From the IMG/VR virus record IMGVR_UViG_2687453623_000004: a DNA stretch of 64,000 bases, one strand, 5' to 3'. This DNA is from a virus. Lineage: Duplodnaviria; Heunggongvirae; Uroviricota; Caudoviricetes. The notes beneath the pieces are model-generated. The model worked only from the letters and a program-made list of their open reading frames with translations. It made no database searches and was not told the origin of the DNA. Numbering within the stretch: position 1 is the first letter of the stretch; every line of letters starts with the position of its first letter. Made by a program: the position numbers and the translations under genes. Of the stretch, positions 51,065 through 57,710 are shown piece after piece.

Positions 51065-51237
51065 TGTCAGGAGTCCTGAATAGTGATTAGAGGAGTCACA
51101 TGTCGGCATCAGTTTCCCGACGATACGCATCCTCCGCCATCAGTCCCGGATGGCTTATCACTGACACAACAGCACCTTAGCGAATCGCGGGGCGCGACTC
51201 AGTAGCCTTGCCGTGTATTCATCACGGCGAGGTATTC
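51065..51237. promoter_or_regulatory. divergent late promoter region between O and P
   Basis: Intergenic region between divergent capsid and terminase/portal operons; contains inverted repeat gccgtg-tattca-tcacggc at ~51199-51220. Confidence 0.35.
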
Positions 51238-53010
51238 ATGACCATCACCACAGACACCACTCTTTTACACGACCCGCGTCGTCAGGCGGCGCTGCTGTAC
51301 TGGCAGGGGTTTTCCGTGCCGCAGATTGCCGCCATGTTGCAGATGAAACGCCCGACGGTGCAGAGCTGGAAACAGCGCGACGGCTGGGACAGCGTTGCCC
51401 CCATCAGCCGTGTCGAAATGAGTCTGGAAGCGCGGCTGACCCAGCTCATCATCAAACCGCAGAAAACCGGCGGTGACTTCAAGGAAATTGACCTGCTGGG
51501 ACGTCAGATTGAACGACTGGCACGGGTCAACCGTTACAGTCAGACCGGCAACGAGGCAGACCTTAATCCGAACGTCGCTAACCGCAACAAAGGCGGGCGG
51601 CGCAAACCGAAAAAGAATTTTTTCAGTGACGAGGCCATCGAAAAGCTGGAGCAGATTTTCTTTGAGCAGTCTTTCGACTATCAGTTGCACTGGTATCGCG
51701 CCGGGCTTGAGCACCGCATCCGCGATATCCTGAAATCCCGCCAGATTGGCGCAACGTTTTATTTTTCCCGCGAGGCGCTGCTGCGCGCCCTGAAAACCGG
51801 TCATAACCAGATTTTTCTGTCGGCCAGTAAAACGCAGGCGTATGTGTTCCGCGAATACATCATCGCCTTTGCCCGTCTGGTTGACGTTGACCTGACCGGT
51901 GACCCGATTGTCCTGGGCAATAACGGCGCAAAACTGATTTTTCTCGGCACCAACTCCAACACCGCGCAGAGCCATAACGGCGACCTGTACGTCGACGAGA
52001 TTTTCTGGATCCCGAATTTTCAGGTACTGCGTAAGGTGGCATCAGGTATGGCCTCACAGAGCCACCTGCGCTCGACCTATTTCTCCACCCCGTCCACGCT
52101 GGCGCACGACGCCTACCCGTTCTGGTCGGGTGAACTGTTCAACCGGGGACGCGCCAGCGCCGCCGAACGCGTGGAAATCGACGTCAGTCATAACGCCCTT
52201 GCCGGAGGTCTTCTCTGTGCGGACGGCCAGTGGCGGCAGATTGTCACCATTGAGGACGCGCTGAAAGGCGGCTGCACGCTGTTCGACATTGAGCAGCTCA
52301 AACGCGAAAACAGCGCCGACGATTTTAAAAACCTGTTCATGTGTGAATTTGTTGACGACAAGGCGTCGGTGTTCCCGTTCGAGGAGCTGCAACGCTGCAT
52401 GGTCGACACTCTGGAAGAATGGGAAGACTACGCGCCGTTTGCCGCAAATCCGTTCGGCTCCCGCCCGGTATGGATTGGTTACGACCCGTCACACCGTGGC
52501 GACAGCGCCGGATGCGTGGTGCTGGCACCGCCGGTGGTGGCCGGTGGCAAATTCAGGATACTTGAGCGTCACCAGTGGAAAGGCATGGACTTTGCCACCC
52601 AGGCTGAATCCATCCGCAAACTCACCGAAAAATACAACGTCGAATACATCGGTATTGATGCCACCGGCCTTGGTGTCGGCGTGTTCCAGCTCGTGCGCTC
52701 GTTCTATCCCGCCGCGCGCGACATCCGCTACACGCCGGAAATGAAAACCGCAATGGTGCTCAAGGCAAAAGACGTCATCCGCCGTGGCTGTCTGGAATAT
52801 GACGTCAGCGCCACCGACATCACCAGCTCGTTTATGGCTATCCGCAAGACCATGACCAGCAGCGGACGCAGCGCCACCTATGAGGCCAGCCGCAGCGAGG
52901 AAGCCAGCCACGCCGACCTCGCCTGGGCGACCATGCACGCTCTGTTAAATGAGCCACTCACCGCCGGTATCAGCACTCCGCTGACATCCACCATTCTGGA
53001 GTTTTACTGA
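51238..53010 (+). CDS. P: terminase large (ATPase) subunit P
   Basis: 590 aa from ATG 51238 (MTITTDTTLLHDPRRQAALLYWQGFSVPQIAAMLQMKRPTVQSWKQRDGWD…). Confidence 0.9.
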   Translation: MTITTDTTLLHDPRRQAALLYWQGFSVPQIAAMLQMKRPTVQSWKQRDGWDSVAPISRVEMSLEARLTQLIIKPQKTGGDFKEIDLLGRQIERLARVNRYSQTGNEADLNPNVANRNKGGRRKPKKNFFSDEAIEKLEQIFFEQSFDYQLHWYRAGLEHRIRDILKSRQIGATFYFSREALLRALKTGHNQIFLSASKTQAYVFREYIIAFARLVDVDLTGDPIVLGNNGAKLIFLGTNSNTAQSHNGDLYVDEIFWIPNFQVLRKVASGMASQSHLRSTYFSTPSTLAHDAYPFWSGELFNRGRASAAERVEIDVSHNALAGGLLCADGQWRQIVTIEDALKGGCTLFDIEQLKRENSADDFKNLFMCEFVDDKASVFPFEELQRCMVDTLEEWEDYAPFAANPFGSRPVWIGYDPSHRGDSAGCVVLAPPVVAGGKFRILERHQWKGMDFATQAESIRKLTEKYNVEYIGIDATGLGVGVFQLVRSFYPAARDIRYTPEMKTAMVLKAKDVIRRGCLEYDVSATDITSSFMAIRKTMTSSGRSATYEASRSEEASHADLAWATMHALLNEPLTAGISTPLTSTILEFY

Positions 53011-54044
53011 TGAGCAAGAAAAAAGGGAAAACACCGCAACCTGCGGCAAAAAAAATGACCGCCAGCGCCCCGAAAATGGAGGCATTCACCTTTGGTGATC
53101 CGGTGCCGGTACTCGACCGCCGTGACATTCTGGATTATGTCGAATGTATCAGTAACGGCAGATGGTATGAACCCCCGGTCAGCTTTACCGGTCTGGCAAA
53201 AAGCCTGCGTGCTGCCGTGCATCACAGCTCACCGATTTACGTCAAACGTAATATTCTGGCTTCAACGTTTATCCCGCACCCGTGGCTTTCCCAGCAGGAT
53301 TTCAGCCGCTTTGTGCTGGATTTTCTGGTGTTCGGTAATGCGTTTCTGGAAAAGCGTTACAGCACTACCGGTAAGGTCATCAGACTGGAAACCTCACCGG
53401 CAAAATATACCCGCCGTGGCGTGGAGGAGGATGTTTACTGGTGGGTGCCGTCCTTCAACGAGCCGGCACCTTTCGCGCCCGGCTCCGTGTTTCATCTGCT
53501 GGAGCCGGATATTAATCAGGAGCTGTACGGCCTGCCGGAATATCTCAGCGGCCTTAACTCTGCCTGGCTGAATGAGTCGGCCACGCTGTTCCGCCGCAAG
53601 TATTACGAAAACGGCGCACATGCCGGATACATCATGTACGTCACCGATGCCGTGCAGGATCGCAACGATATCGAAATGCTTCGCGAAAACATGGTGAAGT
53701 CGAAAGGCCGCAACAACTTTAAAAACCTGTTTCTCTATGCCCCACAGGGAAAAGCCGACGGCATTAAAATTATCCCGCTCAGTGAAGTGGCGACGAAGGA
53801 CGATTTTTTTAATATCAAAAAAGCCAGCGCCGCTGACCTGCTGGACGCGCACCGCATCCCCTTTCAGTTGATGGGCGGCAAGCCGGAGAACGTCGGGTCG
53901 CTGGGTGATATTGAGAAAGTGGCTAAGGTCTTTGTCCGCAATGAGCTTATCCCGCTACAGGACAGGATCCGCGAGATAAACGGCTGGCTCGGTCAGGAGG
54001 TCATCCGCTTTAAAAACTACTCACTGGACACTGACAACGGCTGA
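53010..54044 (+). CDS. Q: portal (capsid vertex) protein Q
   Basis: 344-aa ORF MSKKKGKTPQPAAKKMTASAPKMEAFTFGDPVPVLDRRDILDYVECISNGRWYEPPVSFTG… matching P2 gpQ; ATGA coupling with P. Confidence 0.9.
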   Translation: MSKKKGKTPQPAAKKMTASAPKMEAFTFGDPVPVLDRRDILDYVECISNGRWYEPPVSFTGLAKSLRAAVHHSSPIYVKRNILASTFIPHPWLSQQDFSRFVLDFLVFGNAFLEKRYSTTGKVIRLETSPAKYTRRGVEEDVYWWVPSFNEPAPFAPGSVFHLLEPDINQELYGLPEYLSGLNSAWLNESATLFRRKYYENGAHAGYIMYVTDAVQDRNDIEMLRENMVKSKGRNNFKNLFLYAPQGKADGIKIIPLSEVATKDDFFNIKKASAADLLDAHRIPFQLMGGKPENVGSLGDIEKVAKVFVRNELIPLQDRIREINGWLGQEVIRFKNYSLDTDNG

Positions 54045-54213
54045 ACATCGCCGCCTGCGGGCGGCTTTTTTACATCCCGTCATCACGCCCTCACACGCTC
54101 ACCACCGCACAAAACACCCCGCAGACACACCAACGCCCCGGCGCACAATCTAAACGCCATCACGACGCGCTCAGACGCTGAAAAAATAAAATCAGCACCA
54201 CCGCCAGCGCGCA

Positions 54214-54232
54214 GTGCTTTCCCCGCCTCGCC
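54214..54232. other. cos: cos cohesive-end sequence (P2-type 19-mer)
   Basis: gtgctttccccgcctcgcc is the reverse complement of GGCGAGGCGGGGAAAGCAC, which I recall as the P2 19-nt cohesive end; ~170 bp beyond Q. Confidence 0.7.
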
Positions 54233-54336
54233 CGCCCGCTTCATGGGGCGGTTTTAATGCAGATGTATGAATCCGTCAAAACCATGCCGACACTGACGGC
54301 ACTCGAATATGAAAATAACGAATGAGGCATGCAAAC

Positions 54337-54363
54337 TAATGCATCTAATGCATCTAATGCATG
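54337..54363. repeat. three tandem copies of a 9-mer (TAATGCATC/TAATGCATC/TAATGCATG)
   Basis: Directly visible in the sequence, just 3' (minus strand) of the 139-aa cargo gene. Confidence 0.8.
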
Positions 54364-54369
54364 CAAGAT

Positions 54370-54789
54370 TTAATCATGCTCTAAAGGAGGAATATCAATG
54401 TCACTTAGTTGCAGAACCTTGCGGTAAGCCTCAAAAATTATTTGATGTATATTTTTTAAGTCAGCAAGCATTCTCTGCCTTCCTTCTGGAGTGAATTTAC
54501 CATCAGCATGTTTGCGATAAAACTCATGTGCCAAGTAGTTTCTGGCTTTAAGAGCATCTGACACATGCTCCAGTGTATCAGCATCCCCCACCATCCTTGA
54601 CTTCAGTGCGTAATTCAGTTTACCCAGCGTGTACTTATCCATTTCTAGAAACTGTTTTTTCAACGACGCTATATCCCCCCCTTGCTTCATATCATACTCA
54701 GTGAGGGCATTTATTAATTCAGTCTCCAATAATTGGGCAGCTTCCGATGCATAACCAAACTTCCAATACACAGTATCAAGCGTCACCAT
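54370..54789 (-). CDS. hypothetical protein, tin/old-position cargo (no family recognised)
   Basis: 139-aa ORF MVTLDTVYWKFGYASEAAQLLETELINALTEYDMKQGGDIASLKKQFLEMDKYTLGKLNYALKSRM… with RBS ggagaa ~8 nt upstream; AT-rich context. Confidence 0.5.
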   Translation of the reverse strand: MVTLDTVYWKFGYASEAAQLLETELINALTEYDMKQGGDIASLKKQFLEMDKYTLGKLNYALKSRMVGDADTLEHVSDALKARNYLAHEFYRKHADGKFTPEGRQRMLADLKNIHQIIFEAYRKVLQLSDIDIPPLEHD

Positions 54790-55192
54790 ATAACCTATTC
54801 TCCAGATAACAAACTCTATCCGAGATTAAGCCATAATACACAAATAAGTCTAACGCATCGCTGCACTCATTGTTCCCCCCCGCTAACACTAGAAACAAGT
54901 TTCACGGCTAGCGGCGTTCTCTATCATCTGTGTGATGACGGAGCCATTCTGGATGGACTGATATCGTTAAGCAACCCGTAATTCTCCCGGACTAATTGCC
55001 CTCCAACCAACGCATCAAGCATCAGATTTTCGTGCTTCATTATCTGCTGCCGACTGTGAACAAAAGCCATCAGTTTGATACTTTCAGTTGTATTAACTCA
55101 GACACCAACTGATAGGTTACATATCCAGTATTCAATCAGATCTGACAGTTAAGAGGGACGATAACATGACAACCACCGTAACTATTTGAAAG

Positions 55193-55969
55193 CTATTTAA
55201 TACGTATGAAATCTAAAGAGTATTTAATTGATGATTTCGTTGATTGAAACCATTTCAAATGCGACCACTCTGGGCCTGACAATAGAGTCAGTAGCGTTTT
55301 TTTATCTCTTTCCTTCATTCTTAACCCAAAAGCTATAGAATTGACCGCTAAAGGTTCAAATTTCCTTGCTCCAAAATTCTCCACAATCAATCGGCGCTCC
55401 CTTTCATATTTCCAACTTGTGTACTTTGTCGTTAAAATAGAAAGTAAAATATCCCCGCAAATATTATCAAACCCGTTAAGGCATTCATTATCCTCAAAAT
55501 AATGAATACGTTTAACAATATCATCAAAGGGATAATTATCCTGATATTCCACATCTGCTTCCAAAAAAGAAACCCCAGCTTTCTTCAAATACTCCTCTTT
55601 AAAGCCAATGCAAATACCTTTATGTTCATCGGCATAATGTGACCACATCAATTGATTTTTCCTCGCTTTACTAAAGGAACAAATTCCGACTTGCTGCAAT
55701 GACTGTTTAAGATATCTCTCATATTTAATTCTCATATCAAGAGGCAGTGGATAATGTTTCCAAACAGCATCAAGCACATTTGAAAATGAAGAATTTGCTT
55801 CAAAAGGATCATTAAGAGTATCTGGTTTTGCAAACCATAACTCACGATTCAATAACAGCTTCAGATTGTTTTTATCAAACTTACGATACTTAAATAAAAT
55901 TCCTGGCTTTGTTATGTGTATCACATCCTCTCCTGTTAATTCACAATTCTTATTAAAAACAACAAACAC
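55193..55969 (-). CDS. hypothetical protein, possibly DUF2971-like (start may be GTG at 55924)
   Basis: 258-aa frame; segment …ILFKYRKFDKNNLKLLLNRELWFAKPDTLNDPFE… resembles the N-terminal signature I associate with DUF2971; first codon is GTG, and an alternative GTG at 55924 has a better RBS (ggagagg). Confidence 0.45.
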   Translation of the reverse strand: MFVVFNKNCELTGEDVIHITKPGILFKYRKFDKNNLKLLLNRELWFAKPDTLNDPFEANSSFSNVLDAVWKHYPLPLDMRIKYERYLKQSLQQVGICSFSKARKNQLMWSHYADEHKGICIGFKEEYLKKAGVSFLEADVEYQDNYPFDDIVKRIHYFEDNECLNGFDNICGDILLSILTTKYTSWKYERERRLIVENFGARKFEPLAVNSIAFGLRMKERDKKTLLTLLSGPEWSHLKWFQSTKSSIKYSLDFIRIK

Positions 55970-56041
55970 TAAAAAAAATCATGAAAGGGGTGCATTAAAA
56001 ACACCCCTTAAGATCATTAAAACAGCATTAAATGCCGTTCG

Positions 56042-56548
56042 CTATAACTTTTCCTCCAATTCTTTTTCGTTTATTACTGTATACAACCTATTTATAAACG
56101 AGACATTTCTCCAAATAAGAACAATAACGCATGACAGTTGAGTCAGTAATATACTCAAGATATATACACAACTCACACCTTTAATAAGGTGACGATTGTT
56201 CGCATAGAAATCCGTACCGCGGAGAACAGCATTAAATGCGTAAAAAGCAATAATAAAAATTAATACAGTAGCGGACATAATGATAATAAGAATCATACCT
56301 TCTATGCGCTTCGCTTCACTTTTGCTTGCTAAAAAATCCACTTTTTCAGATTTCATCAAACCAGCGATTGCATTTGGATAGAGATAAGCTAGCCAAATAC
56401 CAGCAATTGCAAAAATCATCGCGGACGTATTTTGCAAAACACCAAGAAGATCAACAACATATGAATATTTGACGCTTTCTGAAATGCTAAAACCGCCAAC
56501 AAGCAGAACGAAGGCCATGAGAATCCCAATAAGGATCTTTATTATCAC
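56042..56548 (-). CDS. four-helix integral membrane protein (candidate effector), translationally coupled to the upstream gene
   Basis: 168-aa ORF starting with GTG 2 nt after the upstream TGA, with RBS ggagga inside the upstream gene's last codons; four hydrophobic segments. Confidence 0.6.
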   Translation of the reverse strand: MIIKILIGILMAFVLLVGGFSISESVKYSYVVDLLGVLQNTSAMIFAIAGIWLAYLYPNAIAGLMKSEKVDFLASKSEAKRIEGMILIIIMSATVLIFIIAFYAFNAVLRGTDFYANNRHLIKGVSCVYILSILLTQLSCVIVLIWRNVSFINRLYTVINEKELEEKL

Positions 56549-56549
56549 A

Positions 56550-57710
56550 TCATCCTCCTATAGCGACCTCATTGTTATTTCCCGAAGGTATAACTTGAGT
56601 TTTATCAATCTCATAACCATCGAGACCACTTACGAGTTCTTTTCGTTTATCATTAATTAACTCTGCCAATTTCTCAGCCGAGATATGTGCGTTATCATTT
56701 ACAGTATAAGTAGCATTCAAATAATCACGCATAACATATTCATCTAACCACTTAGTCTGCCCATTCTTACCATCCTGTTTGAAGCCGATATTGTTCCAAG
56801 AAGAGCCGAAAGCATAATCCTCTTCATAAAAATCGAAAAGTTCGTCAATTTGCTTTTCAGTTGGTCTTTCTTCAATAATTAACTCTATCTGTCGTTCTTT
56901 ATGAGTCTTAGGTACTTCATCACGTAATACAGGAAATTTATCAAAAGCCTTTACCCACCAAGCTCTTTTATCTGGAACTTTAGCTCCAATTGTATCTCTT
57001 ATTACAATATGTGTTATAGAGTCACGAATCTTCTTTATATTTATACGCCCAGCTTTTTTCATATACTGCTGCGCTTCAAATAAAAATCTTACTCGTGAAC
57101 TTCCGTCATCACTTTCAAATGTAACAACACTAAACTTTATGTCTTTCCCACCTGGATTTGGTCTGCATACTTCTGCAATTTTACGCCCGGGATATGGCAT
57201 TCTGAAATTAGCATAATCTCTAATATAGCGACTAAAAAGATAAGTGTCTGAGTTTGAGTGAGGGAAACGAATTGCAGCAAATTTATTGAACTCAGGGATG
57301 TACCAGTAATAACATGGCTTACCCCAAATATATTTAACCCCATCAGTCATATCATCCGAAAGCATCTTAACGTCACTAGATGATGAATTTACCTGTGAAT
57401 CTGGCGCAACCCCCTGAAGATTACCATTGCCATCAAGTTCTGATTTCCAAAGCACAAAAAAATAATCGCCTGTCTTTTCATCTTTATGCACACCTCGACA
57501 ATAAACCTTTTTCCGCAGTCTAGAGTCATCAACCAATGGTAGGGTTTCTTCAAAAGAACGAGAACAAACCCAGTTGGACAGGGAGTCTAATATATTTACA
57601 ATATCCGTGCTTTTTTGAACTTCATCCTTAAGATTGTAAAAACCAGCTTTCGTTACATCAAAAAATGTTAAGCGCCCTGCTTCTTCAGCCATGATACTAC
57701 CTTGCAACAT
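56550..57710 (-). CDS. hypothetical soluble protein (~380 aa), first gene of a two-gene cargo operon (no family recognised)
   Basis: 386-aa ORF (likely start at the second ATG, 57692, which has an upstream aagg) MLQGSIMAEEAGRLTFFDVTKAGFYNLKDEVQKSTDIVNILDSLSNWV…; ~390-bp AT-rich upstream intergenic region. Confidence 0.6.
   Translation of the reverse strand: MLQGSIMAEEAGRLTFFDVTKAGFYNLKDEVQKSTDIVNILDSLSNWVCSRSFEETLPLVDDSRLRKKVYCRGVHKDEKTGDYFFVLWKSELDGNGNLQGVAPDSQVNSSSSDVKMLSDDMTDGVKYIWGKPCYYWYIPEFNKFAAIRFPHSNSDTYLFSRYIRDYANFRMPYPGRKIAEVCRPNPGGKDIKFSVVTFESDDGSSRVRFLFEAQQYMKKAGRINIKKIRDSITHIVIRDTIGAKVPDKRAWWVKAFDKFPVLRDEVPKTHKERQIELIIEERPTEKQIDELFDFYEEDYAFGSSWNNIGFKQDGKNGQTKWLDEYVMRDYLNATYTVNDNAHISAEKLAELINDKRKELVSGLDGYEIDKTQVIPSGNNNEVAIGG

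Follow-up and report, generated by a model that had tools for sequence, protein, structure and literature searches.

The cosB site of phage lambda consists of the repeats R3-I1-R2-R1, which are bound by the small terminase gpNu1, plus an IHF site. The cos site of P2 and of its satellite P4 is described as a '55-bp core' in three papers that cite Ziermann & Calendar 1990 (PMC5694545, PMC3931495, PMC9594776). The cos region is reported to be all that P2 and P4 have in common, since the P2 terminase packages P4 (PMC9122126, PMC9594776). PMC9594776 also reports that P2 cosmids with longer cos flanks are transduced more than 1000-fold better than those with a short version. The record of phage phiCTX (NC_003278) marks repeats R4, R5 and R6 and IHF sites in its cos region.

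The stretch of DNA analysed here (the window, 64,000 nucleotides) holds a P2-like prophage which is essentially identical to that of E. coli SaT040, and the same prophage region matches 16 further complete genomes over 761 compared bases. The cos site lies at the same locus as in P2 and P4. The 19-nt cohesive end GGCGAGGCGGGGAAAGCAC, which is also annotated as cosR in P2 (NC_001895), is present as an exact match, and the adjoining right-arm core, with its TGCAT box at -29, aligns with those of P2, 186, P4 and PSP3 (Table 1).

On the minus strand beyond cos, the order of genes is the 139-aa ORF, DUF2971/PDC-S31, PDC-M18B, PDC-M18A and then the replication gene A. The position of this cargo block is that of the known cos-adjacent hotspot between gpA and gpQ (PMC9122126). 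The tandem repeat which is the subject of this study is 104 bp away from the cohesive end (54214-54232); counted from the TAA stop of the 139-aa ORF (54370-54372), the first ORF stop on the far side, it lies 8-35 nt further downstream. The initial annotation, which had placed it between cos and the cargo, is thus correct. Its description of the site as the boundary between backbone and cargo also holds, except that the tract itself is part of the backbone rather than of the cargo: among the conserved elements of the cos region it is the outermost.

Table 1. Features of the cos region and of its surroundings in the window. Box positions (negative numbers) are distances from the start of the cohesive end.
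Feature	Position	Strand	Remarks
Terminase ATPase	51208-53010	+	runs toward cos
Portal protein (P2 gpQ homologue)	53010..54044	+	on the opposite side of cos from the tract, runs toward cos
19-nt P2 cohesive end, cos cleavage region	54214..54232	-	GGCGAGGCGGGGAAAGCAC on the minus strand, exact match
GC-rich inverted repeat	54232-54251		core plus base 54232
Right-arm part of the conserved P2/P4 cos core	54233..54268	-	...CATCTGCATTAAAACCGCCCCATGAAGCGGGC
41-aa ORF overlapping the tract	54241-54366	-	coding candidate
Core TGCAT box	54257-54261	-	-29
Degenerate copy GCCGTCAGTGTCGGCATGG of the semi-conserved middle element (~GCCAGnnCTGGCGCGG)	54282..54300	-	from information-content profiles and the window sequence
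61-aa ORF overlapping the tract	54309-54494	+	coding candidate
Distal TGCAT-box array	54329..54365	-	five boxes
TGCAT box	54329-33	-	-101
TGCAT box	54339-43	-	-111
TGCAT box	54348-52	-	-120
TGCAT box	54357-61	-	-129
TGCAT box	54361-65	-	-133
Tandem 9-mer x3	54336..54362	-	unit CTAATGCAT on +, ATGCATTAG on -; copy-number-variable part, 2-4 units among relatives
139-aa ORF, PSP3 gp38 homologue	54370..54789	-	phrog_12893 (PHROGs), family of unknown function
PDC-S31 (DUF2971) candidate defence gene	55193-55969	-	PADLOC
PDC-M18B candidate defence gene	56042-56548	-	PADLOC
PDC-M18A candidate defence gene	56550-57710	-	PADLOC

The 139-aa product shares 76% identity with gp38 of Salmonella phage PSP3. 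It has no match in Pfam, NCBIfam or PADLOC, it falls only in a PHROGs family of unknown function, and it is called a hypothetical protein in the annotation of identical genomes. A gp38-like gene abuts the TGCAT array in P2-like prophages of E. coli, Salmonella, Enterobacter, Lelliottia, Kosakonia, Citrobacter and Klebsiella, and the genes upstream of it differ among those prophages. The gp38-like gene behaves as a semi-conserved right-end gene, unlike free cargo.

Two other observations concern the surroundings of cos. Between the PDC-M18B-like and DUF2971 genes, a hairpin at 55986-56007 (AAGGGGTG-CATTAAAAA-CACCCCTT) is followed by a T run on the minus strand; it was considered as an inverted remnant of the cos core and rejected, since it is a terminator-type hairpin between two cargo genes. 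On the portal side, several relatives (loci L014/L018, L032-L036, L039, L046-L050) carry extra genes directly after the conserved TGCGCGC which follows the cohesive end, for example those of a GmrSD-like 592-aa protein, a 528-aa protein, or a pair of 273 and 239 aa. This makes a second insertion point, which flanks cos on the side opposite the hotspot.

The tandem repeat consists of three exact copies of CTAATGCAT at 54336-54362, as read directly from the window sequence. Tandem Repeats Finder returns these perfect head-to-tail units as the single array between 52000 and 57000 (period 9, 3.0 copies, 100% matches, no indels, score 54). The threefold 9-mer of the initial annotation is therefore real, but its frame (TAATGCATC, 54337-54363) is one base off, so that the third copy ends with a G (54363) and not with a C. 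In the 64-kb window the 9-mer is found three times, every time in the array, compared to 0.66 expected occurrences, and the only match of the two-unit 18-mer in the window is the array itself, when shuffles expect 0.01. A chance origin of the tandem array is excluded.

The sequence of the minus strand, read toward cos, is TTGCATGCATTAG ATGCATTAG ATGCATTAG TTTGCATGCC. The tandem units correspond to TGCAT boxes at -111, -120 and -129, and further boxes of the same strand lie at -101 and -133. The array is the sole place in the window where at least three TGCAT boxes occur on one strand within 40 bp. All gp38-like lineages keep the pattern GCATTAG-nTGCATnnn-TnTGCATG at this place despite their diverged non-coding flanks.

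The comparison of copy number across related prophages, which the initial annotation had proposed, shows that loci encoding the identical 139-aa protein carry two, three or four units. The window has three units, as do 17 complete E. coli genomes and two further loci, one of which (L175) is identical to the window over 10.8 kb. The other (L007, GCA_045039615.1) is near-identical except for three single-base gaps; no portal gene is called in it, which reflects either a frameshifted portal or an assembly error. Four units are found in a single isolate (L006), which differs from the window by one 9-bp gap and 0 mismatches over 6420 bp. A sister lineage which is 1.3-1.5% diverged (L008, the metagenome contig L009 and the IMG/VR contig L176) has two units. 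Thus, whole-unit differences exist between otherwise near-identical sequences, and the suggestion that the tract is prone to slippage is borne out, all the more as the four-unit isolate shows no other change. The underlying boxes belong to the conserved backbone.

More distant relatives have the two-unit form only. Two imperfect units are present in PSP3, in Salmonella prophages and next to a homologue with 89% protein identity (L010), and the form is degenerate in the K_EC180 type and in Lelliottia, Kosakonia, Citrobacter and Klebsiella. The metagenome scan returned one locus only, the two-unit contig L009, and the GTDB genome contigs gave no match, either for the gp38-like ORF in a protein-based scan or in an exact-pattern scan. 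This distribution of units indicates that two units are ancestral, that the lineage of the window gained one and that one isolate gained another. Independently, a 10-bp box unit (TTGCATTAAG) of the same array was duplicated in tandem in another lineage, where one locus (L060) has four boxes and its relatives (L071/L089/L135/L154) have three; the comparison is between IMG/VR contigs of ~11 kb, and the two contigs compared are 92.8% identical overall. The existence of loci with two, three and four units and of this separate duplication shows that extra boxes are tolerated. Their rarity among ~100 arms fits a near-neutral or slightly disfavoured polymorphism.

The tandem tract resembles VNTRs which change by replication slippage, among them bacterial contingency loci, in its perfect head-to-tail units and in the gain or loss of whole units among otherwise identical sequences. 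It differs from them in that it has only 2-4 units and lies outside any ORF or promoter spacer, and therefore no on/off switching of a gene is expected. Indeed, no promoter-like site was found over the tract, the ORFs that overlap it are not conserved, and no minus-strand terminator was found between the stop of the 139-aa ORF and cos. A search of Rfam with a permissive threshold (54000-54900) gave no match. The tract itself is an ordinary VNTR, a minor polymorphism, and not a contingency locus.

The boxes which the tract contains have a much wider distribution. The cos regions of 120 loci were gathered from IMG/VR by their cohesive-end sequence. The whole set of arms comes from exact matches to two cohesive-end sequences, and the arms are therefore phylogenetically related. 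Among 102 unique right arms of the enteric type, an exact TGCAT is counted 61, 85 and 90 times in the 10-bp bins which start at -130, -120 and -110, and 97 times in the core bin at -30, compared to a background of ~1.6 per bin. The distal box closest to cos is at -101 in 64 of 98 arms. The most common spacing between boxes is 10 bp (82 cases), followed by 13 (26) and 9 (11). Overall, ~100 unique P2-like and P4-like right arms have TGCAT boxes around -101, -111 and -120/-124, regardless of the cargo, and the boxes of the window agree with these positions.

Boxes 3, 2 and 1 are present in 82%, 77% and 59% of the 74 unique P2-like arms (those linked to a portal gene) and in 100%, 100% and 95% of the 20 unique P4-like arms (linked to psu/delta). 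About 20-40% of the P2-like arms lack an exact match at some box, but usually have a degenerate version of it. The distance and the orientation of the boxes are thus fixed in helper phages and in P4 satellites, independently of the neighbouring genes. P2, 186, P4, PSP3 and the Ralstonia phage phiRSA1 also carry TGCAT boxes. In P2, the array (TGCATTCAAGGGTGCATGAGATTGCATTAAGG) adjoins and overlaps the promoter region of old, immediately ahead of where the old-tin transcripts have been mapped to start; in 186 it follows the terminator t95b, and in P4 (CATGCATCGATAAGGTGCATGGCTTTGCATGCG) it follows psu.

The boxes keep ~1 bit of information at each position and a constant distance from the cut site. 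The 60-70 bp spacer between the boxes and the core has near-zero information, except for the semi-conserved element GCCAGnnCTGGCGCGG around -65 to -50. The boxes are found on the right arm only: the left arm, on the portal side, is at background counts and is conserved over ~7 bp past the cohesive end. The middle element is partly palindromic in enteric-type arms (~GCCAGnnCTGGCGCGG) and in phiCTX-type arms (~GCCCAGnnCTGGGCCGC), at ~-65 to -50 in both, and does not co-vary with the boxes.

The phiCTX-type arms (81 unique arms with the cohesive end GGCGTGGCGGGGGGAC) lack TGCAT. Their box is GCAGG or GCAGA: GCAG[GA] is found in the distal bins at -110 and -100 in 78 and 68 arms, and in the core bins at -40 and -30 in 74 and 63 arms. 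The geometry is common to both groups, with two distal boxes 10 bp apart (~-109 and -99) and two core boxes. The Ralstonia phage phiRSA1 has TGCAT at -129, -110 and -100, in addition to a core box. Since the phiCTX GenBank record annotates R4-R6 across cos, related boxes may have been described before. In Haemophilus phage HP1, a third motif, CACGGAAA, is found at -109, -45 and -15 from the end of the record (right end, L178), which suggests, in a single genome, the same proximal-plus-distal layout with another motif.

The joint change of the distal and the core boxes would be expected if one sequence-specific protein read both and its specificity had evolved with them, and it suggests such a protein, most likely the terminase. 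A protein-binding site was among the readings of the initial annotation, and it receives indirect support from the fixed distances of the boxes from cos in ~100 unique arms and from their co-variation with the core in phiCTX-type phages.

Our preferred reading, to which we give a probability of about 60%, is that slippage has expanded one 9-bp unit within a conserved TGCAT array, and that this array is the distal part of the P2/P4-family cos region and likely a recognition subsite for packaging. The ancestral state would consist of two 9-mer units plus a terminal TTTGCATG, with boxes at ~-101, -111 and -120, as kept in PSP3 and in the 1.3-1.5% diverged sister lineage. The lineage of the window would have gained one unit, whose box lies at -129 on the array's far side, and the four-unit isolate a second extra one. 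The packaging machinery would most likely use the array as a recognition subsite; the best candidate for its reader is gpM, the small subunit of the terminase, which would also read the same box of the cos core (-29/-37). The spacing of the extra units is 9 bp, compared to the 10 bp typical of the array, and an extra unit is probably neutral or only mildly modulating. The repeat, its variation in copy number, the conserved positions of the boxes in P2-like and P4-like elements and the co-variation of distal and core boxes are observed, whereas the binding of a protein, its identity as terminase and the neutrality of the extra units are inferred.

A motif which is found at a fixed distance from the cut site in P2 and in P4, which share cos, is most simply a packaging signal. 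The more than 1000-fold effect of longer cos flanks in P2 cosmids gives indirect support to a role in packaging. The array lies at -101 to -133, outside the 55-bp core as it is outlined in PMC5694545, PMC3931495 and PMC9594776.

The array may work like the repeated terminase-recognition sites of lambda cosB. In both cases copies of a short motif are spread over ~100-130 bp on a single side of the nicking site (the right arm, for the boxes described here), and the presumed reader of the array would be the DNA-recognition subunit of the terminase. The array is nevertheless not a member of the lambda cosB arrangement, because it has no IHF site, its motif and spacing are different (pentamers spaced by 9-13 bp, instead of 16-bp R elements) and it is on the arm opposite the portal and terminase genes. 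Indeed, the IHF consensus WATCAANNNNTTR has no match at a consistent position in 100 unique arms.

Other explanations account for part of these observations. The boxes could bind a factor which is not involved in packaging, such as a nucleoid or transcription factor of the host, or a regulator of the phage which insulates cos from transcription or controls the adjacent hotspot genes, and extra units would then tune its binding. The overlap of the P2 array with the old promoter region makes other roles of the array possible; the array of the window begins 8 nt after the last ORF on the cargo side, and a box spacing of 9-10 bp is typical of many DNA-binding proteins. We consider this unlikely. 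The neighbours of the array and their orientation change completely from arm to arm (the old promoter in P2, t95b in 186, the end of psu in P4, the gp38 stop in the window), yet the array stays at a set distance from the cut site, which makes a regulator of adjacent genes improbable. That TGCAT gives way to GCAGG in step with the core box in different host groups would not be explained by a host factor either, unless this factor also bound the core, and no IHF consensus is present. It is quite improbable that the tract is a neutral VNTR in a non-functional spacer, where the TGCAT boxes would be kept by common descent alone. The copy number does drift between 2 and 4 without any linked change, no ORF or promoter contains the tract, neither an Rfam match nor a terminator was found there, and boxes have degenerated in some arms. 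However, common descent does not account for a spacer that has diverged to near-zero information next to boxes that keep theirs at a fixed distance, for boxes common to P4 satellites, which are otherwise without homology to P2 (PMC9122126), or for distal boxes that shift together with the core boxes in phiCTX-type phages.

The initial annotation had also considered a recombination scar. A scar or a cargo-exchange site at the P2 defence hotspot, in the form of a microhomology junction or the target of a recombinase, would fit with the array being the last conserved element before the variable region, with the homology to a P2-like phage carrying cdt, which stops inside the array (window ~54342), and with the fact that the hotspot is known to abut cos (PMC9122126). 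This explanation is very unlikely and is not supported: neither the 9-mer nor the array has a copy at the other border of the cargo or elsewhere in the window, and no related direct or inverted repeat is found at the border of gene A. The boxes do not depend on the cargo, keep a constant distance from the cut site and lie next to unrelated genes in P2, 186 and P4, like an element of cos rather than junction debris, and units are gained or lost without any change of cargo. Finally, the repeat could be coding, as (Leu-Met-His)x3 in the plus-strand ORF, as part of the minus-strand ORF, or as three Met-His-stop mini-ORFs. A 9-nt unit preserves the reading frame and both ORFs exist mechanically, but this is hardly credible and the three versions were rejected for lack of conservation. 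The plus-strand ORF is antisense to the gp38-like gene and the K_EC180 sequence has a stop in the same frame, the minus-strand ORF is truncated in PSP3, the ATG codons of the mini-ORFs are not preceded by an SD-like sequence, and the annotation of identical RefSeq genomes includes none of these ORFs.

A more ambitious form of the packaging explanation, which we hold only tentatively and regard as doubtful, is that the array is a hitherto undescribed second recognition subsite of P2/P4 cos, that the terminase subunit which reads the core box reads the array too, and that the array co-evolves with the specificity of the terminase across Peduoviridae. TGCAT would be the version of enteric phages and GCAGG/GCAGA that of phiCTX-type phages, and the array would mark the inner border of the defence hotspot. 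If so, the gain or loss of box units may tune the efficiency of packaging or the competition between helper and satellite for the terminase.

The repeat is a small polymorphism, and this ST131-associated prophage lineage can be typed simply by its variation from 2 to 4 units. The repeat is of value because it draws attention to a conserved element beyond the textbook 55-bp cos core, a distal element common to both P2-like helper phages and P4-like satellites. Should the boxes be a terminase recognition subsite, the need of P2/P4 cosmids for long cos flanks in efficient transduction would be explained, the specificity of packaging between phage groups would follow a sequence rule, and the exact start of the cos-adjacent defence hotspot would be defined.
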